Shown one piece after another: positions 3,761-61,459 of a stretch of 64,000 bases of DNA. The stretch lies in the sequence record NZ_CP041325.1; one strand, written 5' to 3'. The translations under genes and the position numbers were made by a program. The notes below the pieces were generated by a model. That model did not search any database and was not told the origin of the DNA. It saw nothing but the letters and a program-made list of their open reading frames with translations. The stretch's first letter is position 1. Each line of letters begins with the position of its first letter. Origin of the DNA: a plasmid.

Positions 3761-3853
3761 GTTCTCTCACCTCTTTTTTTTCTTCTCTGTTTGCTTCTTC
3801 TGTTTTAAAACATCCGAAGGCGACAATAAAAGACCGGAGGTTCTTTTTCCCAG

Positions 3854-15213: not shown

Positions 15214-15241
15214 GACAGAACGAGAAAGTATGTGATAGCGG

Positions 15242-15605: not shown

Positions 15606-18093
15606 AGCCGGAAAGAAGGCGATACCCGGACGGAGCTGGGACTGGCGAATATTGCGAATGGCTGCCTGGAATCGACAGACCGGAAGCTCATCAAGGTATT
15701 GGAAGTCTCCTCAGTGAATTTGTCGTTGATGAATGAACTGGCAAAGAGAATGTGCTTTCAGCCTATCAGTCTTTTATCAACGACACCGGTGAGAAACAGA
15801 TCCAGTTGATGCAGGTAGCCCAGCCAATCAATCTCACAAACTACTTGATGTGGTTTAACGAACAGGTAGACCAGAACTCGTCCTATGCCAAACGGGTGCT
15901 GAAGCAAGGCTATTCCAACCAGATTGAACGGATTCAGAAGTCGAAGAACATGGTGACCCGGAAACGGTATTTGGTGATTTCCAAACCGATGACCCAATCG
16001 CCGAAAAGATTACATGAAGCTCGAGACGACGGCCAATATCTTGAAAGCGAAACTCGAACAGATGCTGTCGGGCTACGAGAAACTGGACGTTAAGATTTTG
16101 GAGAACGATGAATTGCTGAAGTTTTACTACGCTTGCATCGATTTCGAGAATGCACAGGCCCAAGGTGAAAACATTGTGCACAAGACCAATGCGAAGCTCG
16201 ATGTGGTAGTCGGAAAAAATACGGCCAAAGCGTTAGTGGACCAGTATAAAACACTGCTTAATGAACGATTTGAATAAGGAGGTGGCGTCATGCAATGGAT
16301 GAGCAGCCTGTTTCGTGCCAAACCGAAAGAAGAACCGACATTTGAAGAGACGGTGTTCAGCATGAATGAAACGTTGCTGACGGCGATTGCGCCGGATAAC
16401 CTAACGGAATACGATTCGTCGGTGCGCATCGGGGCCAACTATACCCGGACGCTGTTGATAGTCGATTACGATCCGATTCAGGACCAGAACAAAATCCAGC
16501 AAGTGACGGAGCTTCCGGAAAACGTCTCGATTGTGAACTACCTGCAGGAATACAACATCGGCGAGGTCCGGTCGCAGCTCGTTAAAAGCATCAAGCAAAA
16601 CCGGATGAAGATGAATACCCGATTTGCGGATGAACAGACGATCATCGATTCAGAAGGCCAGATTGAAAGTGCGTCGGAAATGCTGCGCAATCTCTCATAC
16701 CGGAACGATAAGATTTTCCTGTTTCATACCTTGATTCACCCCTGGTAGCCAGTTCGCAGGACGAACTGGACCAATTGACGACCACCGTCAAAAGCAAGTT
16801 TTCGAAAATCGGCATCATCCATAACCCGACAGACCGGGCAGTGGACGCCTTCCGTTCATTCCTTCCCCTCAATCAGAACAAAGTGGAGGAACTGACATAC
16901 AAAATGACCAACTCGGAAGCGATTTCGTATTTCTTCCCTTTCCATGAAAATGAAATGTTCTCGCAGACCGGATTGATCAAAGGGCGCAATATGACAACCG
17001 GCAATGTGGTCATCGTCGATGATACGACCTTGCTCAACCGGCATGAATTCGTCATCGGCATTTCCGGAATCGGGAAATCGACGTACTTGTTTGCCAACAT
17101 GACGAACAAGCATATGCTGGGCCGGAAAATCATTACCGTAGATCCGAAAGGGGAATTCGGCCGGAATTACGCGGACCTTGGCGGTGCCTGGGTCAAATTC
17201 CAGCTAAAAGGCGGAAATCGGATCAACCCGATGGATTTGCCGAAAATCAGTGAGAAGGTGCAGCGGGAAGAGGCCGAGCTCGGCAATATCCTGCTGACGA
17301 AAATCTCTAATCTCTTGGTCATGTTCAAGCTGATGTACAACTCCATGAATGAATTGCAGGAAGATATTCTGAGCCGGTATATCCAAAAAGTCTACGAAGA
17401 AAAAAGGCATCGATGAAACTACGGACATCAACCAACTGACGGCGAACGATTATCCGGTTCTTGAAGATCTGTACCGATTGATTGAACGCGATAAAAAAGA
17501 CGATCCGCCTTTGTACGAGCGTATCCGCGATTTTCACACGACTCTTGAAACATATGTATACGGCATCTACTCGGAGCTCTTTAACGGCGCCACAAACGTG
17601 AATATCGCCAATGAATTGGTTTGTTATGACCTAAAAGAGATGAGCAACAACGAAAAAATTCAGCGGATTCTTTTTTTACAACATTTTATCTCACACGACT
17701 TACGAAATTATGAGCGGGGACCGGGAACCCAGCGAAATTTTCATTGATGAAGCGCACGTCATCGCCGATCCGAAAGTGCCGAAAGCGATGGAGTTCATCT
17801 ATTTCATGATGAAAGTGCTCCGGTCGTTCAACTGCGGCATTACAACGGCATCCCAATCAGTGGAGGATTTCCTGTCCGCCCGCGATGAGAACCGGAACTA
17901 CGGGAAAGCGATCATCACCCAGTCGGTGCAACGCCTGTACTTACCGATGAGTGAGGAAGAACTGAAGTACCTGGAAGAGGAACTGGGCAACACGTTCTCA
18001 AAAGAGGAACGATCCACGTTGATTCTGAAGGACGGAAAGAAGAAAAGAGCAGGCCGGCAAAGGCATCTTCTATACCGGTTCCAAGAAAATTAA
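15603..18093 (+). CDS. VirB4-like conjugative ATPase (TcpF/ConE/Orf16 family), interrupted by at least 5 frameshifts
   Basis: Pieces 15603-15809, 15752..16093, 16014..16277, 16290..16748, 16775..17416, 17478..17747 and 17710..18093. Walker A 'GISGIGKST', Walker B '[12 protein letters not shown]'. Confidence 0.7.
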
Positions 18094-18165
18094 GTTAGAA
18101 GTGCAGCTGAATGAAGTGACCGAAAAGCTGTGGTTTGAGCAGAAGAGCATTAACGATATCACCAT

Positions 18166-19254
18166 TTGAAAAGGGATGAGGGTATGAATCCGAAAGAAGC
18201 AGCCAAAACACTGGGGTCCATATTGGTCTCGAAGCTCCTGTTTAGCCCCTTAGGGTTGATTGCAGTGGGAATTGGGCTTCTTCTGATTGCTGTTCCGGTG
18301 TTCATGTCCATGACGAGCAAAAGTGAGGATTTCAATATTGAAGACCCTAACAGCAACTTAGATGCACTCTCCAGCTCATCAGGAGGCGCTTACTGTGCAC
18401 CGGACGGCGAAATAGACCAAGACCTTTGGGATGAACAGTTCGCTTCTGCAGGTGTTTTCAGTGGGATGGGAGATGTATTCTTGGAAGTGGCAGCGCACCA
18501 AGGAATTGACCCGGTGCTGATGGCCGCCATTGCCCTGCATGAAACCGGGCATGGAACTTCTTCGGCAGTAGTGGAAAAGAAGAACCCCGGAGGATTGATG
18601 GGGAAAAACGGGCTCATGGTCTTTGGGACACTCGAAGAGGGCCTCGCTTCCATGGGCAAGACGCTCCACAATCGGATTATTAAAGACGGCTTGGTCACGA
18701 TTGCCGATTTAGGTTCAGTATATGCACCGATAGGAGCTAGTAACGATCCGACGAACCTGAACAGTCATTGGGTTCCGAACGTAACCAAAGTTGTTAGCTC
18801 GTTAGGTGGATTGACGATGAACTGTGCCACATCAACTGGAGAATTTGCCAAACCGGTCCCGAATGTCGCGGTCAATTCGAATTTTGGGGTCCGCGTGCAC
18901 CCGGTAACCGGAAAGATTTCAAGACACGAAGGCGTGGATCTGGAGTGTACACAGCCGGAACTGATTTATTCCGCGAAAGAAGGCCGTGTGGTCTTTGCAG
19001 AATATCCGTCTAATGGGCTCAATACCTATGGAAATGTCGTCGTCATTGAGCATGAGAATAAGTTGTTCAGCTTGTATGCGCATCTCAGCAAAATTGATGT
19101 GAAAGTAGGGCAGGAAGTCAGCCAGCTTCAGCCGGTTGGCCAGTGCGGAACCACAGGCCGCTCAACTGGAGATCATCTGCATTTTGAAATCCATACCGGC
19201 AAACTGTTCGGTAAACGGGTAAATCCGATGCCTTATTTGGAAAAAGGAGCTTGA
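18166..19254 (+). CDS. Bifunctional conjugation cell-wall hydrolase: lytic transglycosylase (SLT/lysozyme-like) plus M23 peptidase
   Basis: N-terminal TM. '[10 protein letters not shown]' is an SLT-like motif. C-terminal 'HEGVDL...GDHLHFEI' is an M23 (LytM) motif. Confidence 0.8.
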
Positions 19255-21138: not shown

Positions 21139-21633
21139 ATGAAGAAATGGTTATTAATATCGTTACTCTTGATATTGGGAGTCTTTTTAGCATCTTGTAA
21201 TTCTAATAATGAGGAAATTGGGGAGGCAGAATCTGAAGAAAAGAAACCTTTTACAAACTCAGATATTGAAAAAACTAACGAGATGATAGATTTTTTAAAT
21301 GAAAAGATGAGAGAGTTTGAGAATAAAGCTAATAATGCAATTGAAAGTGGACAGATTAAAATTGGTGATAATGAGCGATTAATAGAGGAGATACAAGGCT
21401 TAGGACAAGAAAGTGTAATTCAGCCATTTTTAGAAAAGTACCCAAATAGCTTAATTTCAAAAAATGAAGAAGATAGTTCTATCCCGATTACAGTCGAGCC
21501 CACTAGTAGCGAATCATGTACTTTAGGAAATTGCACTTATGAAAAAATCAATGTTATTGAAGTTGATTTTGATACAGATAAAAGTAAGGAATATCATTCT
21601 AGAAATTTCAAAATCACTCAACTGATTTTTTGA
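21139..21633 (+). CDS. Lipoprotein
   Basis: 'MKKWLLISLLLILGVFLASC' lipobox. Confidence 0.6.
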   Translation: MKKWLLISLLLILGVFLASCNSNNEEIGEAESEEKKPFTNSDIEKTNEMIDFLNEKMREFENKANNAIESGQIKIGDNERLIEEIQGLGQESVIQPFLEKYPNSLISKNEEDSSIPITVEPTSSESCTLGNCTYEKINVIEVDFDTDKSKEYHSRNFKITQLIF

Positions 21634-21904
21634 TAATGTAAAAACTTTATCAAAGGTTGAAGGGGAAATTGAAGAAGGAGAACTACGCTTTGTCAAAACT
21701 AAAGATAATAATTTAGTTATAACCTCTATTCCTAATATTCAGCTGCAAACGTTATATATTGATGAAATGGATAGCGAATATGAATCTATAGCAACCGATG
21801 TGCCAGAAAGTGAAGTAGAAGCCGAACAAGCTGAATACAAAAAGGAAGTAGAGGAAACGCTAGCGAAGTTCCCGAAACTTCAATAATCCTTGTAAGAAAG
21901 GGGC

Positions 21905-22975
21905 ATGTTGCAGATGGTGATTCGCACGATTGCTAATAAGGTCGGAACGATTGAAGTAAATGGCAATTCATTTTATTTTCTTCAGCCACTCTCTACCTTC
22001 AACACGGATCAAATGGAACGGATCCAACAGGCTTATGAACGGCGGATGGCTTCCTTAAAAGAAGAAACGCATTATTTAGTCGCAAAAAGCCTGACATTCC
22101 AGTCAGGGCAGGTTCAATTCGAATATGATTTGAGCGGATTAAAGGCTTATGATTACTTGAAGTCCCTTTATTTCGAAGATAAGCTACCTTACTACTTGTC
22201 ATTGGTACGTATTGCGCAAAATATGGAGGTCAACGTCCTTTGGCAAAAGGAAAACTTTGTGGTGGATGTGGAAGAGCAAGTACTTAAAGCGGCAGTTCTG
22301 GAAAACGAAGAGTTGAAACTGTATGACTCAAAAGACCGGGTAACTGCTGTCAAAGAATTGATTATCGTGTCGCTGACCAGTTTGAATCAAGTATTGGGGC
22401 GGCCGAAAAGAAGCGATTTTTTCGAACAGGATGAAGAAGTGATCCGTTTTGCTGAAATGGTCTATCTCCGTCTATCTACATTAGAGGAATTAGAATCTTT
22501 TATTTCTCAGGTCCACGTTGAAATTCAGGAACGGAAGCGGTTAGAAGAAGAGGAACGTGAAAAACTTATAGCCAATAATAAACACTTTGCTTTTACAAGT
22601 CTAAAACTTAACAAGAAACTTAATTCTCCAGGTAAAGATAAGGAGCATCTTCCTTACTTACAAGGCAAGCAAAAGAATAAGGGAAATAAAGCAGCTACTT
22701 CTAAGGAGAGCAATATCCGCTTCCTAGCGGGCGTTGGGGGTATATTGATTGTCGCAGTTCTCTTGAATGTCCTCTTAACCAATGCAAATGAAAATGCAGA
22801 AGCTAAAGATGCTGGGAAAGAAGAAGTGAAACAGGAGATAAACCTTGAAGAGACATACCGTCAAGGCCTGCTAGGAGATGAAACAACGGTCATTAAAACC
22901 CTGGAAACCGTAGGGTATGATTCTTTAAAAAAAGAAGAAAAAAGAAGTCTTAGAGGTATTGTATGTGAGAAATAG
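21905..22975 (+). CDS. EssB/YukC-like (type VII secretion pseudokinase-like) membrane protein
   Basis: 'LKSLYFEDKLPYYLSLVRIAQN' and 'ENFVVDVEEQ' resemble YukC motifs. Single TM 'FLAGVGGILIVAVLLNVLL'. Confidence 0.45.
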   Translation: MLQMVIRTIANKVGTIEVNGNSFYFLQPLSTFNTDQMERIQQAYERRMASLKEETHYLVAKSLTFQSGQVQFEYDLSGLKAYDYLKSLYFEDKLPYYLSLVRIAQNMEVNVLWQKENFVVDVEEQVLKAAVLENEELKLYDSKDRVTAVKELIIVSLTSLNQVLGRPKRSDFFEQDEEVIRFAEMVYLRLSTLEELESFISQVHVEIQERKRLEEEEREKLIANNKHFAFTSLKLNKKLNSPGKDKEHLPYLQGKQKNKGNKAATSKESNIRFLAGVGGILIVAVLLNVLLTNANENAEAKDAGKEEVKQEINLEETYRQGLLGDETTVIKTLETVGYDSLKKEEKRSLRGIVCEK

Positions 22976-23465
22976 GGAATACAATAAAGCGCTGGAAAAA
23001 AATCCGGAGCTGGCGGGTGAAATTGCTGCTAAACTGGTTAAGAGCAAGGACATCAAACAACTGGAGGAAGTTCGTGCTTCTTTACCTGAACCCAACCCTA
23101 TTGTGGATTTTGACTTGGCAGCAGCGACACACGATTGGCAAACCGTCATTGATTTACGGAACCAGATTGAATTAACGGGTGCTCACATGACTACCGTTGT
23201 GACAGCTTTTATCCGGACCGGTGATTTGAAGACAGCTAAAGGATTTGTGGAAGAGAAAGCTGCCGGCGATAAAAAGTTACTAAACCGGGTACTTGAAGCT
23301 GAGAAAAAGCAAAATGAACTCGCTGCGTTGAAAGTGGAAAAAGCAGAGAAACAAAAAGTGATTGATAAAGATACCGATAAGAAGAAGATAAAAGCGGCTC
23401 AAGATCGGATTAAAGCGATTGATAAGCAGATGAAGGCATTAACGGAAGAAATGAAAAACGGCTAA
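22959..23465 (+). CDS. Hypothetical coiled-coil protein, possibly the C-terminal continuation of the EssB-like gene
   Basis: Overlaps the preceding ORF by 17 nt in another frame. Confidence 0.35.
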   Translation: MYVRNREYNKALEKNPELAGEIAAKLVKSKDIKQLEEVRASLPEPNPIVDFDLAAATHDWQTVIDLRNQIELTGAHMTTVVTAFIRTGDLKTAKGFVEEKAAGDKKLLNRVLEAEKKQNELAALKVEKAEKQKVIDKDTDKKKIKAAQDRIKAIDKQMKALTEEMKNG

Positions 23466-35321: not shown

Positions 35322-36407
35322 GTTTGAAGCACGGAAGAAAAAAGCTGGTGCAGGTATTAAAGAAAAAATGAGATAGGGGCTATTGTTCTCGTACCGGGAC
35401 CGAACCTGTATTATTTTACAGGGTTAAAACTCAAACAAAGTGAACGGTTGACGTTGGCAGTTATAACGCAAGAAGCTGAAACATTTTTTGTTTCACCTCA
35501 AGTAGAACTGAGCAAGGTCGAGGAAACAGTAAACGACGATATTTTTTGGTATACCGACGAAGAAGGACCAAGTGGTGCCTTGTCCCAGTTAAAAAAAAGC
35601 AGTGGGAACGCTTGGTATTATCGGGGTCGAATATGATCAAATGAGAGTGATGGAGTTGAAGGCCGTAGAAGCTTTTGAAGCAGCGGTTGTGGATGGAAAT
35701 GGGCTGATTAATAACTTAAGGATCTGTAAAGATGAACAGGAAATTGAGCAATTGCAACAGGCTGTCAACATCTTGGAATCAAGTTTTGAAGCAGTGCTTC
35801 CATATATCAAACCCGGAGTAACGGAAGTTGAAATTGCGGCTCAATTGGAGTTTGAGATGAGAAAGAGAGGTTCTGAAGGAACACCATTTGGAACAATTGT
35901 TGCTTCTGGTGACAGAGGGCCAGTCCTCATGGACGTGCTAGCGAAAAGAAAATTCGTTCGGGAGAACTCGTTGTTATGGATTTTGGTGCCATTGTTAATG
36001 GATATGTAGGAGATATTTGCAGGACTGTCGCCATAGGAACCGTTTCAACAGAGCTAAAAGAAATCTATGAAATAGTACAACTGGCGCAACAGACAGCTCT
36101 CGATAGCGTCAAACCCGGCGTGACAGCTCATGAAGTTGACCAAGCTGCGCGCGAAGTCATTGAGAGCCATGGTTATGGAGAATATTTCACTCATCGTACG
36201 GGGCATGGACTGGGTTTGAATTCTCACGAAATGCCTTATCTCATGAAGAACAATGAAATGGTGCTTCTACCGGGAATGGCTTTTTCAGTAGAACCGGGTA
36301 TTTATCTCCCGGACAAAGTGGGAGTGCGAATCGAGGATAATCTTATTATTACAGAGGATGGCTTTATCAACCTGATGTCGTTGCCAAAAGAGCTTCTGAC
36401 TGTATAG
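35322..36407 (+). CDS. M24-family Xaa-Pro peptidase (PepP/PepQ-like), three frame changes in A-runs
   Basis: 'ASGDRG...EKKIRSGELVVMDFGA...GYVGDICRTVAIG...HRTGHGLGLNSHE' catalytic motifs, split over frames 35322, 35448, 35602 and 35976. Confidence 0.8.
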
Positions 36408-44181: not shown

Positions 44182-44409
44182 TCAATCTTCCCAGAGCTCC
44201 TCCATCAGCTTTTCAATTTCTTTTCTCCGCTTCTCTGTCTCGTCTTTCAGGATGGTCGCCTGTTCATCCTTGATTTCGACGAAGTCACCAGGCTTAGCAT
44301 TCTCAGGGAAGATGCTTTTCTTGAAATCCTGGGGCTCTCCATTAACTTCGACCACAGCGATATCCTCCTCGAACCGGTCAATAATCCCTTTGATGATCTC
44401 CATGGTCAT
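44182..44409 (-). CDS. DUF3006-family protein
   Basis: 75 aa. A frequent partner of secreted MBL hydrolases. Confidence 0.6.
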   Translation of the reverse strand: MTMEIIKGIIDRFEEDIAVVEVNGEPQDFKKSIFPENAKPGDFVEIKDEQATILKDETEKRRKEIEKLMEELWED

Positions 44410-45221
44410 TTCACCGTTGCGACCGTGATCTTGGTCCCTGTCGAGGTGAAGATAATGTTGCCCTTCTGGTCGGTTCGATAGACAGCCGCCTTGTACGGCT
44501 TGTAGCGGTTGAGTACTTCCGCGGTCGGATGACCATAAGCATTCTTGCCGACACTGATGACGGCGTACTTCGGCTTCACCGCTTTCAGGAAATCCGCGTT
44601 GGAGGACGTCTTCGCCCCGTGGTGTCCGACTTTGATGACGTCCGCGAGGAGCGTCTGTTTTGCTTTGACCATGTCTGCTTCAGACGCCTTCTCCGCATCA
44701 CCCGTGAACAGGAATTTGTTCTTGTTGTACGTCACATGCAGCACCGCGCTCCAGTTATTGAGATCGGTCTTGCCATAGTCGCGCGTCGGTCCGACGAATT
44801 TCGCCATCACGGTTTTCAATGGTAGCTTGACGCCGACCTTCGCGGTCTTGATCGTCAGCTTCTCGGCCTTCACAGCTTTCAAAAAGTTCGCATAGGCATC
44901 CGTCGTGTGCGCCACTTTCGGGGCGTAGACCGATTCCACCTTGTACGCTTTCAGCACTTCATCCAGGCCGCCAAGGTGGTCGGCATCCGGATGTGTGGCA
45001 ATCATGATCTCGATGTCGTCCACTTTCTGTTTCTTAAGGTAGGCGATGACCTCGTCGCCCTGTCCCTGGCGTCCGCCGTCGATCAGGACGTCTTCACCGC
45101 CCGGCATCTTGATGTAAGTTGCGTCGCCTTGGCCGACGTTGATGAAATGCACCTTCATCGTCGGTGTGGCAGCGGAGGTGGACGGTACGGACACGAGCCC
45201 GGCCAATAGGAACATGGACAT
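44406..45221 (-). CDS. Secreted MBL-fold metallo-hydrolase (ComEC C-terminal domain-like)
   Basis: Signal peptide. 'HFINVGQGDATYI' and 'THPDADHLGG' motifs. ~60% GC. Confidence 0.8.
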   Translation of the reverse strand: MSMFLLAGLVSVPSTSAATPTMKVHFINVGQGDATYIKMPGGEDVLIDGGRQGQGDEVIAYLKKQKVDDIEIMIATHPDADHLGGLDEVLKAYKVESVYAPKVAHTTDAYANFLKAVKAEKLTIKTAKVGVKLPLKTVMAKFVGPTRDYGKTDLNNWSAVLHVTYNKNKFLFTGDAEKASEADMVKAKQTLLADVIKVGHHGAKTSSNADFLKAVKPKYAVISVGKNAYGHPTAEVLNRYKPYKAAVYRTDQKGNIIFTSTGTKITVATVK

Positions 45222-45364
45222 GAGGGTGCTTAGGGTCTTCTTCAGTGGGATCTCCTTCTTTCCTGTAAGTTATTTACATTCATCATAAGCGATGGTCTCC
45301 GAGACGGCAATCTATTTTTTCCTCTTTTTCAGGATTGTTCGTGGGCCTTTGGTGGTATAGAATT

Positions 45365-45378
45365 AGAACAAGTGTTCT
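45365..45378. promoter_or_regulatory. LexA (Cheo) box AGAACAAGTGTTCT
   Basis: Perfect GAAC-N4-GTTC palindrome ~20 bp upstream of the polymerase ATG. Confidence 0.7.
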
Positions 45379-45398
45379 TTTCGGAAGGGGTGAAGGAT

Positions 45399-46655
45399 AT
45401 GGAGAGCCGGGAAGGGGGGGAACGCACGATTGCTTGCCTCGACATGCGCAGTTTTTATGCGAGTTGTGCGGCGGTCGAGGCCGGGATGGATCCGCTGGAA
45501 GCGTATATCGCCGTCGTCGGCAACCAGGAGCGCAAGGGCAGCGTTGTGCTTGCGGCCTCCCCGCGGATGAAGCAGGAGTTCGGGGTCCGTACCGGCACCC
45601 GGCTGTTTGAAATCCCGGGCGACCCGCGGATCCGGCTCCTCGAGCCGAAGATGGGCTTCTTCCTGAAGGTGTCGATGGCCATCACGGACCTATTGGCGGA
45701 GTTTGTGCCGAAGGACTGCATCCACGTCTACAGCGTCGACGAGAGCTTCATCGACTTCACCCGTGTGGAGAGCTTCTGGGGCGGGGCAGAGGCGCTCATT
45801 CGCCACATCCAGGACGCGCTTGTCCGCCAATTCGGGCTGCCGTCTGCGGTCGGGGTGGGGCCGAACATGCTGCTGGCGAAGCTCGCACTCGACCTAGAGG
45901 CGAAGAAGAGCGGCTATGCCGAGTGGACGTATACCGACGTGCCGAAGAAGCTGTGGCCGGTCGCGCCCTTGAGCAAGATGTGGGGCATCGGGTCCCGCAC
46001 TGAACAGACCTTGAATGGCATGGGCATCTTCTCGGTCGGCGACTTAGCCTGCACGGATGTCGCAAAATTGGAAGGTCGCTTCGGCATCATGGGACACCAG
46101 CTCTATCAACATGCCAATGGCATCGACCTGTCGGAGCTCGGCGCGCCGCTCATCGAAGGGCAGGTCAGCTACGGCAAGGGGCAGATCCTCTACCGGGACT
46201 ATACCGAAGTGGAAGACATCCTGACGATCATCCTGGAGATGTGCGAGGACGTCGCGATGCGCGCGCGGCAGGCCGGACGGGCGGGGCGCACGGTCCAGCT
46301 GGGGGTCGGCTACAGCAAGACAGCGTTCGGCGGCGGCTTCTCCCGCTCGCGTTCAATCGAGGAGGCGACGAACGAGACGCTGGCGCTCTACCGGGTCTGC
46401 CAGGAACTGTTCCGGGAACATTACCTCGGCAAACCGGTCCGCCAGATTTCGCTGTCCCTCAGCAACCTGGAGGAAGAGTCATCGATGCAGCTGAGCCTGT
46501 TCGAGGCCCAGAAATGGGAGAACCGCAAGCTCGGGGCGGCGATGGACCAGATCCGGAACCGGTACGGCTATTCGGCGATCTACCGGGCGGTGTCCGGGAC
46601 CGAAGCTGGAACGGCCATTGCCCGGACACGCTTGATTGGCGGGCATCAGAAATAA
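45399..46655 (+). CDS. Y-family DNA polymerase (DinB/UmuC-like translesion polymerase)
   Basis: 'IACLDMRSFYASCAA...VYSVDESFIDFT' is the Y-family palm. The ORF-track start at 45372 overlaps the LexA box, so the Met at 45399 is preferred. ~62% GC. Confidence 0.85.
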   Translation: MESREGGERTIACLDMRSFYASCAAVEAGMDPLEAYIAVVGNQERKGSVVLAASPRMKQEFGVRTGTRLFEIPGDPRIRLLEPKMGFFLKVSMAITDLLAEFVPKDCIHVYSVDESFIDFTRVESFWGGAEALIRHIQDALVRQFGLPSAVGVGPNMLLAKLALDLEAKKSGYAEWTYTDVPKKLWPVAPLSKMWGIGSRTEQTLNGMGIFSVGDLACTDVAKLEGRFGIMGHQLYQHANGIDLSELGAPLIEGQVSYGKGQILYRDYTEVEDILTIILEMCEDVAMRARQAGRAGRTVQLGVGYSKTAFGGGFSRSRSIEEATNETLALYRVCQELFREHYLGKPVRQISLSLSNLEEESSMQLSLFEAQKWENRKLGAAMDQIRNRYGYSAIYRAVSGTEAGTAIARTRLIGGHQK

Positions 46656-47329: not shown

Positions 47330-47770
47330 GATTACCTTCTGAAGGTTCTGAAGGTAATGATAAACTGAAATACCGCACCTGCAAGGTAACAAGGCAAAGA
47401 ATTCCCGGCTATTTGTGGTCCAAGCTGCTCGAAGTCCGGGAAAAGCAGGCCATCCATCGGCTCTTGAAAAAGGATGCCCACTTACAAGAACTTCAATTGT
47501 TCATCAGCGAGTTCTAGCAGCTCATGCGACTACAGCGAGAATGCCTGCATTGAATACGAAGAAAAAAAGCGGAATCAAGGAACTGAAGCAATTTGGACGC
47601 TACTTGCAATCAGATTGGCAAGCTGTTGAAAAATTCCCTGATTCATCGCTGGAGCAATGGTTTGGTAGAAGGTCATGTAAATCGCATTAAAGTGATCAAA
47701 TGGTAAAGGTATGGCCGGGCTAACTTTAATCTGCTTCGCCTTAAAATTTTATACCGTTCCAATTAATACT
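47330..47770 (+). mobile_element. Degenerate C-terminal remnant of an ISL3-family transposase
   Basis: Across three frames: 'GIKELKQFGRYLQS', 'LLKNSLIHRWSNGLVEGHVNRIKVIKW*', 'RYGRANFNLLRLKIL'. This is the ISL3 C-terminal signature with an in-frame stop. No N-terminal transposase portion is present. Confidence 0.6.
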
Positions 47771-48182
47771 TTCCTAAAAAACAAGCTAACCATTCACCAG
47801 CTGCCGACAATCATCTTCACCAAATTGCGGAAGAACCAATAATAAACCGGTGTTAACAAATATTATTTTCAATTTTAAAAAATAAGTTTAATACATCGAG
47901 TGCTATATATTTTTAGGAACCTAAACAACCGTGTTTAAGTTCCTTTTTTGCTGTTATTTAGCATTTGGTTATAGAAATTAGAAATAATAATTACCTTCTT
48001 TGATCTATCGAATGGTGCAAATTCACTTTAAATAATTTTCTTAATTTTTTCTCAAAACCTCAAAAATAAATCTCTTTTCGATGTGAATACTTGTATAATT
48101 TAGGTAATAATAAATATTTTTAAAGACTCATAAATTAGATGAATTAATTTAATTAAAATACTATTAAATATATAGGGGGTTA

Positions 48183-49787
48183 ATGATGGAGAGCATAAGA
48201 ATAAGAAATTTAAGAAGTTTAAAAGACACAGGGGAGGTTGAACTCAAACCGTTAACTTTATTAGTGGGGAAAAATAGCTCAGGAAAAAGCACCTTTTTAA
48301 GAACCTTCCCATTATTCAAGCAAACTATAGAAACTAAAACTAATGAACCGATTCTTTGGTATAGCAGTAGATACGTTGATTTTGGAAGTTTTCATGAAAG
48401 TCTTAATAAGATAACAGCTAAAGAAGAGGAGGAAAAGAAAAATATTAGTTTTGATTTCAAATTTAGTATCCCAAGTTCAGTTGTACAAATGGGAACTGTT
48501 GATATATTAAGCTACTATTCTTTAAGACCAAGTAGAATGAGTAGAATTTATAATTATAATTACAGCAATAGTAACCGTAAAACACCATTTAAAATAAGCA
48601 TTGAAACGAATCAAAAGTCATTATCTAAATTTACTATTTCTATAGAAGATCATTTACTTGAAATGACTTTAAAAGAAGATGAAAAATTTAGTCAAGTAGG
48701 ACTTAAAATAAACGGAGTACCTATTTCAGAAACTTCTAGTTTAGTAGCTCGATACGCTAAAGATTACTCGCAGTTATTACCTTTAATCTTTAGTGACAAA
48801 AGTAATTCTTCTGAAAATAATTATTTTAGAGATGAGTTATTTAAAATTTTTCAAAGCTTGGCTTATACTTCTACGAGAAGAAATACGATTTCAGAGTTTA
48901 TTGAGGACATAAAGTTTGGTGATAAATCTGAAATTATTAATAATATAAAAAGTCAAGATACTACAGCTAATGTTCTATTAGAAAATTTAAAAGCATTAGA
49001 GTCCGACAATGAGGTAATGCAACAAATTATAATAAATTACATAGGTATGAATATAAATCCTATAATAACAATGTGTAATAATTATATAGAACAGTATTTC
49101 TCTTCAATTAATTACATCGCTCCTATTAGAGCGAGTGCCGAAAGGTATTACAGAATTCAAGGTCTTTCTGTAGATGATATCGATCCACAGGGCGAGAATA
49201 TACCAATGATTTTCAATAATATGAGTGATATTGAAAAAGAAAATTATAACCATTGGTTATTTGGTAATTTTGGATTTCAAATATCAGCAAGCCCTACGGA
49301 AGGACATTCATCAATAAGAATAAAATATAGTAATGGAGAAGAGGTTAACTTAGCAGATACAGGCTTCGGGTATTCTCAGATTCTCCCAATTACTTTAGTT
49401 CTATGGCAGACTTCAAAACAAGAACGAAAAGACATATTTGCATATAGTGGATTATATAAAGCTGATTACAATTTTTTTAATTTAGTGATTGAGCAGCCTG
49501 AACTACATTTGCATCCAGCTATTCAGGCTAAATTAATCGATGCATTTATAAAGATAATTATGCTATGTAAAGAAAAGAGTATTGATATTAAAATTATTAT
49601 CGAAACACATAGTGAAACAATGATTAATAGAATTGGATATATAATAGCAAAAAATATAGAGGAATTTACCGAGGATTTAGTTAAGGTAATTATTTTTGAA
49701 AATGATGAGGTCTTTGATACTAAATTAAATGTAAGTACATATTCGGAAAACGGGTATCTAAAAAAATGGCCTTTAGGTTTTTTTTGA
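48183..49787 (+). CDS. ABC/AAA_21-type ATPase, AriA-like (PARIS-like system component)
   Basis: N-terminal 'IRIRNLRSLKDTGEVELKPLTLLVGKNSSGKST'. C-terminal 'IEQPELHLHPAIQAKLIDAF...IIETHSETMI' (Walker B, D-loop, H-loop). Confidence 0.6.
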   Translation: MMESIRIRNLRSLKDTGEVELKPLTLLVGKNSSGKSTFLRTFPLFKQTIETKTNEPILWYSSRYVDFGSFHESLNKITAKEEEEKKNISFDFKFSIPSSVVQMGTVDILSYYSLRPSRMSRIYNYNYSNSNRKTPFKISIETNQKSLSKFTISIEDHLLEMTLKEDEKFSQVGLKINGVPISETSSLVARYAKDYSQLLPLIFSDKSNSSENNYFRDELFKIFQSLAYTSTRRNTISEFIEDIKFGDKSEIINNIKSQDTTANVLLENLKALESDNEVMQQIIINYIGMNINPIITMCNNYIEQYFSSINYIAPIRASAERYYRIQGLSVDDIDPQGENIPMIFNNMSDIEKENYNHWLFGNFGFQISASPTEGHSSIRIKYSNGEEVNLADTGFGYSQILPITLVLWQTSKQERKDIFAYSGLYKADYNFFNLVIEQPELHLHPAIQAKLIDAFIKIIMLCKEKSIDIKIIIETHSETMINRIGYIIAKNIEEFTEDLVKVIIFENDEVFDTKLNVSTYSENGYLKKWPLGFF

Positions 49788-49802
49788 GCCGGAGGGAATT
49801 TA

Positions 49803-51006
49803 ATGTTATTAAAGATTGATAGTTCATTAGTTGATTATTTAAAAGATAATTCCTCAAAGCCCAATTTAATAAATAACGAAGTTCAGGCTTTAAATAATCT
49901 CTCTATAGCACACAGGGACAAAAAACATATTTTATTTGGATCTTTAGATGTAGTAGAATTTTTAAAAGATTTTAAACCCTTAGATGATACTGCGCTAGGA
50001 ATTTTTAGCAATTTATTTAAAAAGTTTACTTTCATGGGAATATATGAAGAAATGTTTGATAATCAAATATTAATTAAAAGTAGAGAACATAAGTTTTTAA
50101 AGAAGTTTGTTAAAGAGAAAGTAATATTTGAAATTCCTATAACTGATTTTTTTAGATATAGAGAGTATTAGTAGAACTGCACTAATTGGAGAAGACAGTA
50201 CTGACTGTGAATTTTATGAAGGATTAGCAAAACAGTATATTACAGAAAATTATGGGATTTCTGCTATTAATTTAAACTTTCACCATGTGAATGGAGGGGG
50301 AGTAAATACTTGGAAATCCTTGCGTTATTACAGTGAAAATAAAAAAATCTCACTTACTATAACTGATAGTGATAAGCGCTACCCAACTGGTAACGTAGGA
50401 GAGACTTTAAGAAAATTGAGGACTGAATATAATAAACATAAAAATAATACGATAACAGATTTAGTGGAGTTAAAAGTAAGAGAAAAAGAAAATTTAATTC
50501 CTCCTTCAGTTTATTTGTATTGCTGCAACAGTTCTGATAAAAGTAGATTGGAAAACTTCATGTTATTAGAGGATTCTAATAAGCATTCCGAAAAATTATT
50601 TTATTTAGATTATAAAGAAGGGTTAAACGTTAAGAGCTATAAACGAGATTCTCAATTGCAAGGATATATAGAAGAAATGGTGAAAGATTTTCCGCACTTA
50701 GCCACTTGTAGTTTGGAAGATATAGATTCCTTATCTGACGATTATCGTATTATTGAAGGTATAAGTATGAATGTTTCAGATTATTTTAGTGTAGGAGTTT
50801 TTTACGAAGGTTTAGAAAAAGAATTAGAAGATAAATTAATGATAGAAAAAATACCAGCAGAAGTTATAGATGATTTGCGTAATAGTATAGACAAAAAAAA
50901 TAAAATGTTTAGACATATGCCAGAAAGCTTTCAAGTTCATTTGGAGGAAATTTGCAAAAAGCTTATTGATTGGGGATGTGCTAATAGTTCTTTTATTGCG
51001 ACCTAA
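49803..51006 (+). CDS. DUF4435/Toprim-like (OLD-family nuclease-like) protein, AriB-like; one gene split by a T7-run indel at ~50165
   Basis: Removing one T from 'gattttttta' joins the 122-aa and 239-aa ORFs. The junction then reads 'ALIGEDSTDCEFYEGL' (Toprim Glu motif), followed by 'LTITDSDKRYP' (DxD motif). Confidence 0.5.
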
Positions 51007-51364
51007 ATACTTTGAAAAAGCATTTAAAAATATTTATGAAAGTATTACTTAAATTGTAAATTGATTTGTCAAGTGTATAGTGATTACGTGAATTTTTTTC
51101 ATAAAAGATGGTTTATAAGAGGCCGAAAAGAAGATTCCAATTTCTTCTCGGCTACTTCTAATTTAGTCTCAAAATTTATATCAAAAGCACTCTATTATAA
51201 TATTGCTTAAGAATGATCCAGCTAAGAAAAGGAAGGACATCGATTCTTATAACGAATCTAATACAGTATCTATATTTAAGTGTTTATACAATAAAGTTAT
51301 TTTTTGCTTAGTCTCGGCTGCGTACTTACTCGAACGAACCCTGGAATCGCAAGCTCGTCCAACT

Positions 51365-54300
51365 TTATCGTAAAAGTATGGTGTGAGTTACTTTATCTAT
51401 GATTTGCTGTGAAATTTCTCGATCGAAATCTGCTATCTCTGGTAATATAGCATTAATATTTGCTAAATCTATTTCTTCAAAGTTCGATATTGCTTCAGCA
51501 ATTATAGTTGATTTCTTGAGTAAAAATAATCTCAATGAATTGGGGTCTTCATTTATTAAGTGGAAAATAAGAATATGCAGAGCTTGCCATTCTAATCGAT
51601 CTTTTGAGTAAGAATCTCTATGCATAGGAATATCAAAATCATTTTCTATATAATACTTAACTAGCGAAGGAGAAAAAGCGAACTGATAAAGGTTTATTTT
51701 CTCAAATTTCTCTTTATTACTGTAAAGAAAATTATCAATTATTCGAACGTGCTTTTTATCAAGATACAAAAAGAGGAACTCAAGTATTTCACTATGAAAG
51801 CTCGCCCAAACATTATGCTCATCAAATTTAGTTTTTATTCGGGTTAAATCTATAGCTTTAATAAGCTCAGAGTATTTACCTGAATCAAACTTTCTCAGAA
51901 TCTTATAGAAACTAGATAAGTTGTGCCAACTGCGAAAGGGAACTGTTACTAATTCTTCAGCCAATTGCTTGGGTTCAATAAAACTAATGATTTTTTCACC
52001 AATGACTCTTTGATCTTTTTTAATATAATCTCTTTTTTCGCTTAAAGAGTTGAATCCCATTACTATTGCTAAAAATTTGAAATCTAGCATATGCCAAGCG
52101 TTAATTGAATGTTGTTTAAATGCATTGCGGAAATTGTCAGACATCACGTGAAATAATTTAATGCCATAAAGTCTGTCGTAGTTAAAAATGTTCCCAATGA
52201 AATCAACTAAGTCTTCGAAATCTAACTGGTTATTTTCCAATAAAAGTAGTTCTGTTTCAATCTGGTTTTTGTCTAAAAGCTTGAAAAATTCCTTTGCTCT
52301 TTCAATTGATAAAAGAAGACCTAACCTAGAAATAAAATAACTCCAGTGATATAAATCTTCTTTCTTTAAATTAGAAAATCTATTAGCAATTTCAGTTATA
52401 TTTAAGTTGTTACCAAAATCTTTTGCTTTAATTCTATCCGAATTATACATATCATTTATTATAGTGCCCAATGAATAAGCCGTTATACTATTTACATTTT
52501 CAATTTCTTTATGAATTGTTGAAGAAAAATGATATATATCAAAATACTCGGTTTTACTAAACTTTGTAAAAGTATTGGCGAAGTATAAAGCATGAGTAGT
52601 GAGAGTTTTTTTCTTCTGACGACAAGCTTTCTTCAATGATATGGTAAACTTCGTCTTTCGAAATAATATAAGGCATTCTAAAATGCAGTTCACTAGTGAA
52701 AATTGTATTCATAAACCATACTTTTCCTAAAAGCGGATTATTTAGAGATATCATTTCATTGTGTACTATTTGCTCATATTTTTTTCTATTTTCTGTGTCA
52801 TTATCGAATATGAACTTCAATTGTCTTTTAGCTGCTTCATAGTGAATCATTCTAAGGAAGAAACCATCAATTAACCTTTTCTTTCGTAGTGCTTTTAAAT
52901 TTTTATTTAGCCATTCTTCATCTTCAGAAAAGTATTCTTTTACGTTCTGTATTAACCAATTTTCATTTACTGTATTATCTTTGGTTATTATCTGTTTTAG
53001 AGCCAGTAAAAAAATTAATCTTTGTGAGTTGTCTAGATCTTTTGATTTAAAGTAGTTATCTTTAGTAGTTTTCCACCCGCCTCTAATTACATAATTAAAG
53101 GTCCAAAGATTGTCCTCTTTCGAGGCGGCATCTATTCTTTGATCGAACGATTCTTGCAGAAAGTAATTTCCTAAGTCTCCATCTATTTTTGAAATAATAT
53201 GTGAAACTGTTTTTTCATTTTTTCTGTAAAATTCACTAATGCAAGCGATATTCTCATTATTAGAAATTGAAACTGTAGCGGAATCAACTTCTATATCTTC
53301 AGTAACTGTCAAAATGATCTTTTGATAATTACTGCTTTTTTCTTGTAAGATTTGCAAAATCGAACTGGGTAGAATATGTCCATCATCAATGATATATATT
53401 GCTTTAGGATTGCTGGGTAAAGAAAAATTATCGATATCTGTAAAATCATTGGTTTTGAAACGTAAAACTTCATATCCATGTTTTAAAAAATGAAAAGCGA
53501 TTTGGTAACAAGAAATGGATTTACCAGATCCGGGTTTTCCTTGAAGAATAACAAAGTTATTCAACTCTAAAACTTTAATAGCTTTTTTGAACTTGGGGCA
53601 TTTCGGGACAAACGCTCACGTCTTGAGGGGTAAGTTTGTACCCTAAAACGGCTCTTCCAATACTATCATTTTGATTTTTAAAATTTAAGTACTCCCATTT
53701 ATTATAATTATTCTCGTCTATCAAATTTTCAACTAATTCCTCAAAAAATTCCGACGCCGATAAATTAATCACTCTTTCATCAGTTGAAAATGGGGAAACT
53801 CTATAGACTTTCCATTTATCTTCTAAAGGCGAAATCAATTCTTCTACAATTTTTGCATCGCTTTCTGAATAGCCAACGATAACTAGAGTTCTAGGTCTTT
53901 CCATTGCTAGTAGATTAATATGTTTTTGTTCTTCGTCACTTATATTTCCTGGAGAGTTTGGAAGTACCCACTCAGAATTTAAATTTAAGACATCTCCGTG
54001 TGGTTTGATCAAATTTATTTTACTGTCGTTTATTCGGGTACCATATAATTCAGACCATGACATTTCTAATAAGCTATCCCAATTAAAAGAGACAATTAGC
54101 TCAAAAAATTTTCATGAACTAATTTAGCTATATTATTATGTATACGAGGGGCAACGGTTATTTTACTGTTAACCTTGCTAAACTTGCTTTTAAATAAACT
54201 TACCGCATCTTCATTCTGTTCAATATATGAAAACGCCCTTTTGATTTTTTACAAAATCTTCTCCTATTCTACTCTTTGTACTTCCAATGCCTTTAAACTT

Positions 54301-54465
54301 CTGATCGATACTAGGAAAAGAACTTACTACCTCCCAAACAATAGGAGCAAGCTGGTTACCTAGTGGCATTCCAGGTTCAAAGGAAACTCCCGCCCCAATA
54401 ACTACGACAGCATTATTAACTCTTATTTCATTAATTATTGAGGTTAAATTATTAACAGACTTCAT
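51365..54465 (-). CDS. SIR2-like NADase domain fused to a NACHT/STAND-like P-loop NTPase and an α-helical C-terminal domain (~1030 aa after correcting homopolymer frameshifts); bNACHT/Avs5-like candidate
   Basis: SIR2 motifs: 'VVVIGAGVSFEPGMPLGNQL' (54220..54465), 'IVSFNWDSLLE', 'LIKPHGD' and 'LVIVGYSESD' (53575..54063). NTPase: 'ILQGKPGSGKS', 'IYIIDDGHIL', 'KIILTVTED' (52557..53564). Helical 442-aa tail (51365..52693). Junctions lie at T6, A6 and A7 runs. A single nt change at each gives a continuous ORF. Confidence 0.55.
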
Positions 54466-54563
54466 CTCACTTGCTCCTTTTTTTAGTGATACTTTAATTA
54501 TTCCATATAGGGAAAAATAATAAAAACGTTATAAATTAAACTGTTTTATAGGAGTTTCTTCTA

Positions 54564-55182
54564 TTATAAAGGAGTTGCTGTCTCTGCTTCGATTTCTCTC
54601 ACTAATTTATAAAAACTAGTTTTTTTAACTCCAGTTTCTTGCATGGCTTCAACTGCTGTTAATTCTCCAGATTTCCATTTTCTATAAACCTCTTTAAATT
54701 CTTCTGAAACAAGAACAGGAGTCCTGCCAAACTGAATGCCGTTTTTCAACGCTAAGTCGATTCCTTCGCGTTGCCGTTTTCGTATGCGTTCCCGTTCTTC
54801 TTCTGCCATCCAGGAAAGAATCTGCAAAACCAAATCTGCAATGAATGTTCCCATACTATCTTTATACTGCGTCGTATCGAGTAACGGCATATCCAGCACC
54901 ACGATATCCGCTTCGATTTTTTTTCGTCAGGTCATTCCATTCCTGGAGGATCTCTTCTTTGTTCCGGCCAAACCGATCCAGCGAGTGGATATATAAAATG
55001 TCGCCTTTCCGGATAATCCGTTTGAGCAGCTGATAGTTCGCTCGCTCGAAATTCTTACCACTTTGCTTGTCCAAATAAATATCCCGTTCAGTGATGCCCA
55101 TTTTTCTCATTGCTTCCAATTGACGGCCTTCGTTTTGATCTTTGCTGCTGACACGTATGTAGCCAAATTTGCGATGTTCCAT
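54564..55182 (-). CDS. Serine recombinase (resolvase/invertase family), one A8-run frameshift near 54895
   Basis: N-terminal 'GYIRVSSKDQNEGRQL...LYIHSLDRFGRN' catalytic domain. C-terminal HTH 'TAVEAMQETGVKKTSFYKLVRE'. Confidence 0.8.
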
Positions 55183-55219
55183 AATTCACCTCGAAAACGA
55201 TTGTTTCCTCTCATTATAC

Positions 55220-55355
55220 CTGAAAAGCGTTCGTAAAAGTGTCTGCAATTTCGCGAACGTTCGTAAAGTCATTTGACACGTTTACGAACGCTGTTTTAGC
55301 CGTTTAGCCCTTTTCAAAGCGTTCGTAAAAGTGTACTTTTACGAACGCTTTAAAA
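55220..55355. promoter_or_regulatory. res-like recombinase binding region: five copies of GCGTTCGTAAA(A)GT in direct and inverted orientation
   Basis: 55224 AAAGCGTTCGTAAAAGTG; 55253 GCGAACGTTCGTAAAGTC; 55278 (inverted) CACGTTTACGAACGCTG; 55316 CAAAGCGTTCGTAAAAGTG; 55336 (inverted) CTTTTACGAACGCTTT. Immediately 5' of the recombinase gene. Confidence 0.6.
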
Positions 55356-55665
55356 AGTATAGTGGCATGTATAAAAAGGGAATAAAGGAGAATTCGGCGA
55401 ATTACCTGTTTAAGGAAATAAACCAATTGTTAAAGAAGACAACTAGGGGCGAGGGGAGTGATTCGTTTTATTCGATATGAAGAGGATCAAATGTATTTAG
55501 AATTCACAGAAATAGAACCGGCTGTAAGTTTAACGGAATTTGTAAAATATCTATAAGATGAAGAAATCACAAGACGAAAGGATGCCTTGGCGATGGCTTT
55601 CAAAAAGCAAAAAACAGAAAGAAATCCAGGCAGTCTTCCGAACTTTGCTCGCCTGAAATCATGAA

Positions 55666-56094
55666 TTGAAAAATTTGCCGAAAGGATGTGATGATATGAC
55701 GATTAACGTATTTATCAGCTATGACTACACCAGCGATAAAGAGTATGCATCCTTATTAAAAGCTTGGGCTGAAAACGATGCCGAACATTTTAAGAACATT
55801 AATTTTATTGATGGTTCTAGCGATTTTTCAAGAGAATCTACTAAAGTGAACGCCTTCAAAAATTCAATTTCAAGAAGAATGAATGCGTGTGATAAAATAC
55901 TTGTTTTAGTTGGAAAAGAAACCTACAAAAGTGATTGGTGTAAATGGGAGATCAAGAAAGCTGAAGAACTTGAGCTTGATTTTGCAGCAGTTAACATTGA
56001 ACATGCAAATGCATCTCCCATCAGCTTGTACGGAAAAGGAGTAAAAAGGGCGAGAAGTTTTACTGAAGCAGCCATTGAAAGCGTCTTAACGTAA
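55666..56094 (+). CDS. TIR-domain protein (ThsB-like/DUF1863-like), ~130 aa
   Basis: 'INVFISYDYTSDKEY' βA motif and 'KSDWCKWEIKKAEE' (SxWCxxE catalytic-Glu box). Probable start at the Met of MTINVF (55696). Confidence 0.65.
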   Translation: MKNLPKGCDDMTINVFISYDYTSDKEYASLLKAWAENDAEHFKNINFIDGSSDFSRESTKVNAFKNSISRRMNACDKILVLVGKETYKSDWCKWEIKKAEELELDFAAVNIEHANASPISLYGKGVKRARSFTEAAIESVLT

Positions 56095-59736: not shown

Positions 59737-61209
59737 CTATTCGGATTCAATTACAAATTCAATTGTCTCCCGGTCGGAAATCGTCGGAAGTTGATAGGAT
59801 TGCTGGTAGTTTTCATGGCCTTTGCCGGTGATTACAACCCAATCGCCCGTCTTGCTTTCGTTGATTGCTTTTTGAATGGCGACTGTCCGATCCGGAATTA
59901 TGCTTCCCTTTTCATTACCGTAAGTCTCATTTAGTCGTTTTAAGTCGTCCACCATCTCGATTTGCGACACCGTGTTCAGGTCATCCAATGTCAAATGTAC
60001 CGGTCACTCCATTCTGCGCTTATCGACAGCATGGCGCTTCGCTTGCTAGGGTCCCGGTCCCCACGAAAGCCAAAAACATGGATAATCCGTTTGGCGCCCT
60101 GTAATTTTACGGTTTCCAAGCAGTAAGAAACGGCATCCGGTGTATGGGCATAGTCCACCACGACGGTTGAGCCATTGGTTAGTTTGGAAACTTCAAAACG
60201 TCCTTCGACCCCCCTTGAAATGTGGAACGGAATCCAAAAGCTTTTCTTTGGGAATCCCCAGAAGCCGTGAAGTTCCATACGCCATCAAGGTGTTGTACAT
60301 ATTGTGCATGCCGTTCATCGCTGAGTCCATTTGGTACGTTTCGTTCCTTTCCTCCACCAGCATCGTGGAGGTCGTTGGGGTAAAGTAGACAACGCGCAGA
60401 TCGCAGTCAGAGGACCTGCCAATCGCATACACCGATTTCCCTTCCCTTTGCAGGGTTTCCGTAAGCTTTCGCCCCCACACATTATCCGCATTCACCACAG
60501 CGGTTCCGTTCGCTTTCAACTGATGGAACATCAAAAGCTTCGTCTGGAAGTACTCCGCCATGGAGCCGTGGTAATCCAGGTGCTCCGGATGAAGATTGGT
60601 AAACAAGCTGTAATCAAATGTAATACCTGCCAAACGGTGTTGGGCCAATCCGTGAGAAGAGACCTCCATGATGATGACCTCATCGCGGCTGAGGGATAAT
60701 AGCTTGTGCAAAGCCAGCGAACTGGGCGTGGTGTTGGCGCTTTTCGTCTTCTGACCATTGATCACATTTTGGATGGTCCCGATGACAGCACAAGTCATCC
60801 CGTTGTTTTCTAGAAAATGCTGCAGCATGTAACTTGTGGTCGTTTTCCCATTGGTTCCTGTTATGCCAATCATTACTTTCTCTTTGGACGGATGCCCATA
60901 GAAATTCCTCGCCATTATGCCAAGGGCTTTGCGGCTATTCTCCACTTGAAGATAAGGGATGGATAGGCCGGTGATTTCCTGTTCTCCCACGACCACTAAA
61001 GTGCCTTTTTCAATTGCTTGTTCAATATACTGATGGCCATCACTTTTAAAGCCTGCAATGGCGACAAAGACGAATCCTGCCTCGACATCTCTGGAATTAT
61101 CGGCAATGCCTTGGATATCTAACTCTAACGTGCGGGAATTCAACCGATTAATCAAATCAATTTCCTGCAAAAGTTGCCTTATTTTCATTGATTGGGTAAC
61201 CTCTCTCAA
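59737..61209 (-). CDS. murE: UDP-N-acetylmuramoyl-tripeptide ligase MurE, two frameshifts
   Basis: 'IGITGTNGKTTT' P-loop, 'DNVWG', and a C-terminal 'VVVDYAHTPDA...ITGKGHE' spread over three frames. Confidence 0.8.
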
Positions 61210-61459
61210 ACAATTTAAATTCGATTTATTCTATAAGATGGATGTTGAGAAAGTGTGCAGAATTCAAACCAAGCACTCTCATAAGAAAAACTTAATTTTC
61301 TTGTAACACAAATGAAGTCTATCGTTTTCTAGAGGGAACAGTAGCACGGTTTGTTCATTCCAATAAAAACCCGAAATCTTATTGACAAGATTTCGGGTTA
61401 TACCGTTACTATTGGGGACATTTTGGTCTTCCTCTTCCATGTTGATTTTTTTAAAAAAA

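Follow-up and report, generated by a model that had tools for sequence, protein, structure and literature searches.

A stretch of 64,000 nucleotides from the plasmid record NZ_CP041325.1 (hereafter the window, to which all coordinates refer) carries on its minus strand a gene that is broken into several reading frames in the deposited sequence. After five one-base corrections in homopolymers, this gene encodes a single protein of 1071 amino acids that combines a predicted SIR2-like effector, a nucleoside triphosphatase (NTPase) of the STAND class and a long helical domain. With a probability of about 0.88, it is the gene of an immune sensor of the Avs5 kind, linked to a resolvase on a conjugative plasmid of Planococcus glaciei, and its breaks are miscalls of the record.

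Reconstruction of the SIR2-STAND gene

Four minus-strand open reading frames (ORFs; 54220..54465, 53575..54063, 52557..53564 and 51365..52693) and an open middle frame at about 54096..54248 were found, in agreement with the chain of five pieces drawn in a preliminary description of this DNA. The switches from one frame to the next fall within short overlaps of the ORFs, each of which contains a homopolymer, and the runs at four of the junctions (J1 to J4, Table 1) are of the A6, T6 and A7 kinds that had been named before. The proposal that single-nucleotide changes restore one ORF also held, but the number of frameshifts is five and not four. The additional one (J5), located in a T4 run that had been missed, was revealed by comparison with full-length homologues; it produces a premature stop codon at 51365-51367, whereas the last ~40 residues run on in another frame to the TAA codon. 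The protein therefore has 1071 residues, and not the ~1030 estimated without this C-terminal end.

Relative to the intact copies described below, an extra base is present at four of the five sites and one is missing at J2, so that the edits required from J1 to J5 are deletion of an A, addition of a T, deletion of an A, deletion of an A and deletion of a T. The resulting ORF has 1071 codons and is preceded by a GGAG ribosome-binding site 8 nt ahead of its ATG.

That the pieces form one fused polypeptide, as had been proposed, is confirmed by full-length homologues of 1067-1090 amino acids encoded by single ORFs and by a GenBank protein of 100% identical sequence. An operon of three separate genes, one each for the SIR2, NTPase and helical parts, is what ORF calling on the raw window would suggest, as it yields separate pieces and leaves a possible TTG start on the one that encodes the NTPase. 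However, in more than 30 homologues, distributed over many phyla, one ORF of 1030-1150 amino acids extends over all three parts, the internal pieces have no preceding ribosome-binding site, an intact ORF of identical sequence exists, and AlphaFold gives a confident model of the whole chain. The probability of three independent genes is thus negligible.

Origin of the frameshifts

The repaired protein is 100% identical to QKX52890.1 / WP_176295310.1 (P0037; 1071 amino acids), from a P. glaciei plasmid, and the ORF at 52557..53564 has a 335-residue product identical to QDY47010.1 (P0038; locus tag FK545_20735), from another P. glaciei plasmid record, a match by which the source of the window is identified; both entries share a 90%-identity cluster with the best homologue. 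At the DNA level, an independently assembled contig of 3440 bp (Logan SRR36224905, L063) was aligned to positions 54634..51194 of the window with 0 substitutions over 3437 bp and six one-base homopolymer differences, which correspond to the five coding sites and to a run in the leader that is A7 in the window and A6 in the contig. When the 335-residue ORF was looked up exactly, no contig was matched, and no near-identical copy of the gene was found in PLSDB, where the resolvase alone was matched.

The corrected gene is under purifying selection. Compared with the 91%-identical copy of Planococcus sp. S3-L1 (L001), the ratio of nonsynonymous to synonymous substitution rates (dN/dS) was 0.16 overall and ranged from 0.08 to 0.45 between segments, the peak corresponding to the last 38 codons, whereas the longer segments downstream of the breaks all had values of 0.19 or lower.

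Frameshifts are also frequent in the rest of the window, at approximately 1 per kb and mostly at homopolymers. When compared with the P. maritimus plasmid pKRIBB-KS-1-2, the genes for the MobQ relaxase and VirB4/DUF87 were each divided into five frame segments (four frameshifts), that for TrsD into three (two frameshifts) and two hypothetical genes into two each (one frameshift each); the genes for an M24 peptidase and a Mur ligase were also divided between frames. The multi-frame regions include 1696-3766, 15192-18166, 21139-23450, 35593-36404 and 59994-61230. Outside the SIR2-STAND gene, 13 frameshifts were counted in 13.3 kb, and the frequency per homopolymer of at least 5 bases was 0.16 in this gene vs 0.19 elsewhere. 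The record has the look of an error-prone assembly that was left unpolished. Given the identical intact copies, the equal error rate elsewhere and the low dN/dS, the five frameshifts and the differing run in the leader almost certainly stem from miscalled homopolymers in the record, as the preliminary description had supposed for the frameshifts, and the real gene would be intact.

Two other origins of the breaks were considered. A genuine pseudogene, with real frameshifts in a dead defence gene, could have arisen for instance through selection against the cost of abortive infection; loss of defence genes is frequent, there are five breaks in this gene, it is the 335-residue fragment that was annotated in the deposited record, and the adjoining resolvase gene is broken too. 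Alternatively, the homopolymers could be contingency switches by which a toxic immune gene is phase-varied through slipped-strand mispairing, in line with the location of every difference in an A or T run, with the A4, A5 and A6 readings of the J3 run in three deposited copies and with the position of one run in the leader, beside the ribosome-binding site. Nevertheless, 0 substitutions together with six indels in 3.4 kb, and a frameshift rate per homopolymer equal to that of conjugation and metabolic genes across the 64 kb, fit neither decay nor phase variation. Nonsense and large-deletion lesions, moreover, are absent from the gene, and dN/dS stays at 0.08-0.19 in most segments beyond the breaks, with 0.45 in the last 38 codons only, which makes a pseudogene quite unlikely. 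As for a switch, its runs would be short, with 3-7 bases in the intact gene, it would not operate through five OFF mutations at once, unrelated genes of the window behave identically, and the runs at J2 (TTTTTTC) and J5 are not kept in the S3-L1 copy, so that phase variation is highly improbable.

Any pseudogene, split gene or hidden fusion in the window should consequently be presumed an artefact until checked, and the source plasmid has accordingly been annotated in fragments. The protein was described beforehand as hidden, but in public data it is not, as its intact form had already been deposited and named 'nSTAND3 domain-containing NTPase' by NCBI.

The HF394 plasmid of P. glaciei holds two copies of the gene, ~110 locus tags apart: the intact one of 1071 amino acids (P0037; HF394_19880) and a second one (P0039; HF394_19325) annotated from a frame shifted at J3, with 786 amino acids. 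The two P. glaciei plasmid records are of similar length (FK545, 157,579 bp; HF394, 157,805 bp), and they may be doubled assemblies of a ~79-kb plasmid or carry a real large duplication.

Domains and conserved motifs

The conservation of motifs was judged in an alignment of 37 family members. In the N-terminal domain, N128, D130 and H156 were invariant, GAGxS (G24-A25-G26-x-S28) was conserved in at least 90% of the sequences, and W129, K154-P155-H156-G157, G198-Y199-S200 and D203 were further invariant or near-invariant columns. In the NTPase, G312, G314, K315 and S316 of Walker A and D360 of Walker B were invariant, and D361 was at least 90% conserved. The SIR2 and Walker motifs pointed out in the preliminary description all lie in such columns and, being invariant or nearly so in the family, they are not chance matches. 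With N141 of EfAvs5 and the H171-type histidine of DSR2 as catalytic references, the SFNWD and KPHG motifs correspond to TTNYD and LHING of EfAvs5-like proteins, an equivalence established by motif and not by structural superposition. The N-terminal domain has a sirtuin fold; the Pfam model SIR2_2 (PF13289) was not matched at E<=1 by the repaired protein itself, but it was by 14 of 36 relatives (best E 5e-7).

The NTPase matched Pfam nSTAND3 (PF20720) over residues 291-362 with 49.5 bits, above the cutoff of 27.2, and more weakly nSTAND5 and NPHP3_N; nSTAND3 was also matched by 35 of the 36 relatives. The STAND assignment, which the preliminary description would have given up had similarity to STAND proteins been lacking, is thus well founded. 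Its comparison with NACHT proteins stands in part: NLRP3 and NOD2 are among the structural neighbours, together with SAMD9 and EfAvs5, but the Pfam family is nSTAND3. The NACHT family was rejected accordingly, as Pfam NACHT gave no match at E<=1 in the repaired protein, unlike what defines bNACHT proteins and the NACHT of eukaryotic NLRs.

The AlphaFold2 model of a single chain had a mean predicted local distance difference test score of 87.8. Its secondary structure comprises the NTPase followed, in the same chain, by helical and winged-helix subdomains and by the repeat sensor, with helices from approximately residue 557 to 1061.

Relationship to Avs5

Avs5 has been defined as Sir2 (PF13289) plus nSTAND3 (PF20720) plus helical repeats (PMC12931631). 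These proteins hydrolyse NAD+ when triggered by a phage protein, and it is the formation of filaments that activates the SIR2 domain (PMC12931631, PMC11897194). The protein described here shares with EfAvs5 (9JAP) and PaAvs5 (9NC9) the arrangement of an N-terminal SIR2 domain, an nSTAND3 module and a C-terminal helical sensor in a single polypeptide. In EfAvs5, N141, K379 and D426 are essential (PMC12931631, PMC11897194), and the Asn and His of the SIR2 domain, the Lys of Walker A and the Asp of Walker B, essential in EfAvs5 (PMC11897194), are kept here.

A Foldseek search of the model, as had been proposed beforehand, returned Avs5 filaments as best matches, with 9jap EfAvs5 (E 8.5e-13) and 9nc9 PaAvs5/AVAST5 (E 5.6e-10) at the top along with SAMD9, and the alignments to Avs5 and SAMD9 covered ~880-1045 columns. 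The best PDB match of the family profile was likewise the EfAvs5 NTPase (hmmsearch, E 1.4e-4). A 100-residue fragment of EfAvs5 returned two partial proteins alone from a large protein collection, and full EfAvs5-like genes were taken from plasmids by tblastn. In hhalign, the family aligned with two such plasmid proteins with 82% probability (E 1.1e-5), collinearly from the GYS motif of SIR2 to the sensor-1 strand; the alignment of the N-terminal SIR2 region was rejected for residue equivalence, as the NxD motif was misplaced in it. The SIR2-STAND architecture of Avs5 type suggested in the preliminary description is therefore upheld by the nSTAND3 match, the SIR2 fold and the structural matches, and the protein is, as judged from its sequence and model, a remote Avs5-like SIR2-nSTAND3 member.

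When the repaired protein and its 36 relatives were searched with PADLOC, no full-length model was matched, short local SIR2 matches alone being obtained (PDC-S65, Aga_SIR2, SIR2). PADLOC-DB v2.0.0 also missed the EfAvs5-like proteins (L064:1439-3988 and L065:1445-3979), one of which had ThsA-SIR2 matches only and the other none. As EfAvs5-like proteins are missed likewise, a negative PADLOC result is uninformative for SIR2-STAND proteins, and its use as a sign of distance from Avs5 was dropped.

The protein differs from Avs5 in several aspects. It has ~1070 residues compared to ~790-870, and the spacing of its SIR2 motifs is tighter, with 28 residues from Asn to His vs 37. To our knowledge, the characterised Avs5 proteins all come from Pseudomonadota, as do the Avs5 clades studied, whereas this family occurs in Bacillota and Actinomycetota as well as in further phyla. 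In the published list of Avs5 homologues, largely from Pseudomonadota, all proteins are of ~790-840 residues (PMC12931631).

The following observations weigh against an intact Avs5-like gene. The C-terminal domain is ~200 residues longer than that of EfAvs5 or PaAvs5, the similarity to characterised Avs5 proteins is remote (~12-20% identity), and the repaired protein itself matches no Pfam SIR2 model at E<=1. In a provisional alignment, the stretch that corresponds to the 'TTR', with its arginine, after the sensor-1 strand of EfAvs5 reads 'TVTED' here. The family accessions, Planococcus and Bacillus are absent from Table S1 of PMC12931631, although this is weak evidence, as the table was compiled by BLAST with PaAvs5-1 as the seed. 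Regarding the frameshifts, the miscall explanation is indirect, being drawn from assembled sequences and not from reads, and the second copy on the HF394 plasmid is shifted at J3 too, where it reads A4, which would reflect either errors in the HF394 record as well or real variation in the length of this run.

Other SIR2 and STAND proteins differ in their architecture. SAMD9/SAMD9L and the bacterial SAMD9-like STANDs (Avs6, Avs9) carry AlbA_2 or PNP effectors and extra domains (PMC12680541), in contrast to the SIR2 effector found here and the HNH of some relatives. DSR2, ThsA, SIR2-HerA, the Sir2 of SPARSA and KomC are devoid of a STAND NTPase. Defence sirtuins are regulated by SLOG and cyclic ADP-ribose (ThsA), by binding of the tail tube to HEAT repeats (DSR2), or by pAgo or HerA, whereas neither SLOG nor a pAgo partner is present here. 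Thoeris, considered on account of the SIR2 domain and a nearby TIR gene, was rejected, since the protein has no SLOG domain and the TIR gene is outside the conserved resolvase and STAND module.

Family, effector exchange and proposed mechanism

Full-length relatives of ~1030-1150 amino acids encoded by single ORFs were found in Bacillota (Bacillus, Peribacillus, Clostridium), Actinomycetota, Verrucomicrobiota, Acidobacteriota and a Methanoculleus. In an exhaustive profile search, E<=1e-3 was reached by 1150 cluster representatives and E<=1e-30 by 425 (50%-identity clusters). The effector is modular: some relatives (P0148, P0151, P0154 and P0157) share the NTPase and C-terminal domains (E ~1e-150) but have an N-terminal HNH endonuclease replacing SIR2 and align only from approximately position 255 onward, and other relatives have N-terminal domains of 180-290 residues without a Pfam match. 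Such a SIR2/HNH exchange is the effector swapping expected of immune STANDs.

The family had been put forward as a possibly divergent or undescribed clade, which is correct only insofar as the family is experimentally uncharacterised and missing from the published table of Avs5 homologues. Going further, the ~1070-residue proteins of Bacillota and Actinomycetota could tentatively be viewed as a separate Avs family and not as a fifth clade of Avs5, a reading that we consider possible though somewhat short of even odds. Such a family would have its own helical sensor of ~500 residues, directed to a phage protein fold unassigned to any Avs, and a swappable effector (SIR2/HNH), and it would be spread among Gram-positive plasmids as cargo of a resolvase/res cassette.

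If the protein works as described for Avs5 (PMC11897194, PMC12931631), its C-terminal helical domain would bind a phage protein, and the ATP-bound NTPase would then drive oligomerisation or the formation of filaments. This would bring the SIR2 domains into an active arrangement in which they hydrolyse NAD+, and the resulting depletion of NAD+ would abort the infection. The NADase activity, the trigger, the oligomerisation and the antiphage function are all put forward here by analogy with EfAvs5 and PaAvs5. An intact SIR2-STAND protein could instead serve in plasmid competition or addiction, or in conflicts with other mobile elements, through depletion of NAD+ or a different chemistry of SIR2, for example ADP-ribosylation. 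However, every characterised SIR2-STAND protein is antiviral (PMC11897194, PMC12931631), swapping with HNH effectors is typical of immune STANDs, and the neighbouring genes are of defence type, so that a role other than in phage defence appears unlikely.

An immune sensor of the Avs5 kind, as favoured here, leaves the current picture of SIR2-STAND immunity unchanged. The intact gene encodes an Avs5-like protein that is carried on a plasmid, next to a resolvase, in a psychrotolerant genus of Gram-positive bacteria, and its larger sensor and HNH-swapped relatives would make it a reasonable candidate for the discovery of triggers in Bacillus-type hosts.

Resolvase cassette and neighbouring genes

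The window belongs to a conjugative plasmid of Planococcus type, and the SIR2-STAND gene is located in a stretch of low G+C content (28-31% vs ~42%). The features discussed are listed in Table 1.

Table 1. Position of the SIR2-STAND gene, its frameshifts, domains and motifs, and of neighbouring features in the window.
Feature	Coordinates	Strand	Details
Whole SIR2-nSTAND3-helical sensor gene	51247..54465	-	1071 aa after five 1-nt homopolymer corrections
Start codon	54465-54463	-	ATG
Stop codon	51249-51247	-	TAA
J1 frameshift	54245..54250	-	A6 in window, A5 in intact copies; extra base
J2 frameshift	54103..54108	-	T6 in window, T7 in identical intact copy; missing base
J3 frameshift	53583..53588	-	A6 in window, A5 in intact copies; extra base
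J4 frameshift	52606..52612	-	A7 in window, A6 in intact copies; extra base
J5 frameshift	51372..51375	-	T4 in window, T3 in intact copies; extra base
5' leader	54474..54484	-	A7 run 54478-54484 (A6 in L063), then GGAG ribosome-binding site 54474-54477
SIR2-like NADase effector domain, N-terminal (predicted)	53596..54465	-	~aa 1-290
SIR2 motif GAGVS		-	aa 24-28
SIR2 motif residue N128	54084-54082	-
SIR2 motif residue D130	54078-54076	-
SIR2 motif residue H156	54000-53998	-
SIR2 motif GYS		-	aa 198-200
STAND NTPase module	52797..53595	-	~aa 291-556; nucleotide-binding domain plus helical/winged-helix subdomains
Walker A K315	53522-53520	-
Walker B D360-D361	53387-53382	-
All-alpha-helical repeat domain, C-terminal (presumed sensor)	51250..52796	-	~aa 557-1071
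Serine resolvase	54564..55185	-	Directly upstream of SIR2-STAND gene, same mobile module
res-like array	55223..55357	.	Four AAAGCGTTCGTAAAAGT copies as inverted pairs upstream of resolvase
AAA_15 ABC-type ATPase (534 aa) and ~400-aa partner gene	48183-51006	+	PADLOC NsnB 1e-45, PDC-M55A, AriA 4e-28
Orphan ThsB-type TIR gene	55666..56094	+	142 aa; PF08937 6e-19
ISL3 transposase remnant	~47383-47860		~69% identical to transposase gene of Planococcus sp. MB-3u-03 plasmid

One A too many in an A8 run (54917-54924) breaks the resolvase gene in two, and deletion of one base restores a protein of 205 amino acids that is 82-94% identical to resolvases of Planococcus plasmids; members of the same family, with ~85-89% DNA identity, are present on plasmids of Staphylococcus, Proteus, E. 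coli and Pasteurella. The AAAGCGTTCGTAAAAGT array consists of two near-perfect palindromes plus flanking copies and looks like a putative res site. In Planococcus, resolvase and STAND gene form a cassette of 4.2 kb, positions 55351..51112 of the window corresponding to 2320-6553 of L001 (Planococcus sp. S3-L1), and the homology with the S3-L1 module ends at 55351, within the array. The gene would thus travel as a two-gene cassette with the serine resolvase. As the neighbouring genes vary between genomes, it acts as a single-gene module. A scan for promoters and terminators gave fewer matches than in shuffled controls, with none between the resolvase and the SIR2-STAND genes.

The defence-island neighbourhood proposed in the preliminary description was broadly recovered, with an AriA/NsnB-like AAA_15 ATPase, a ThsB-type TIR protein, the serine resolvase and an ISL3 remnant. 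The partner of the AAA_15 ATPase is encoded in two frames, with the switch at a T7 run (50146-50152), and had no Pfam or PADLOC match; from their sequences, both genes are a candidate PARIS/Nsn-like two-gene system. The TIR gene has no ThsA partner and is located just outside the resolvase/STAND cassette. The transposase remnant also gave short matches to ISL3 transposases. Finally, a protein with a metallo-beta-lactamase fold, on the minus strand, and a DNA polymerase of the Y family (ImpB/MucB), on the plus strand, are encoded at 44409-46652, at a GC-rich patch (54%) directly ahead of the low-GC island.

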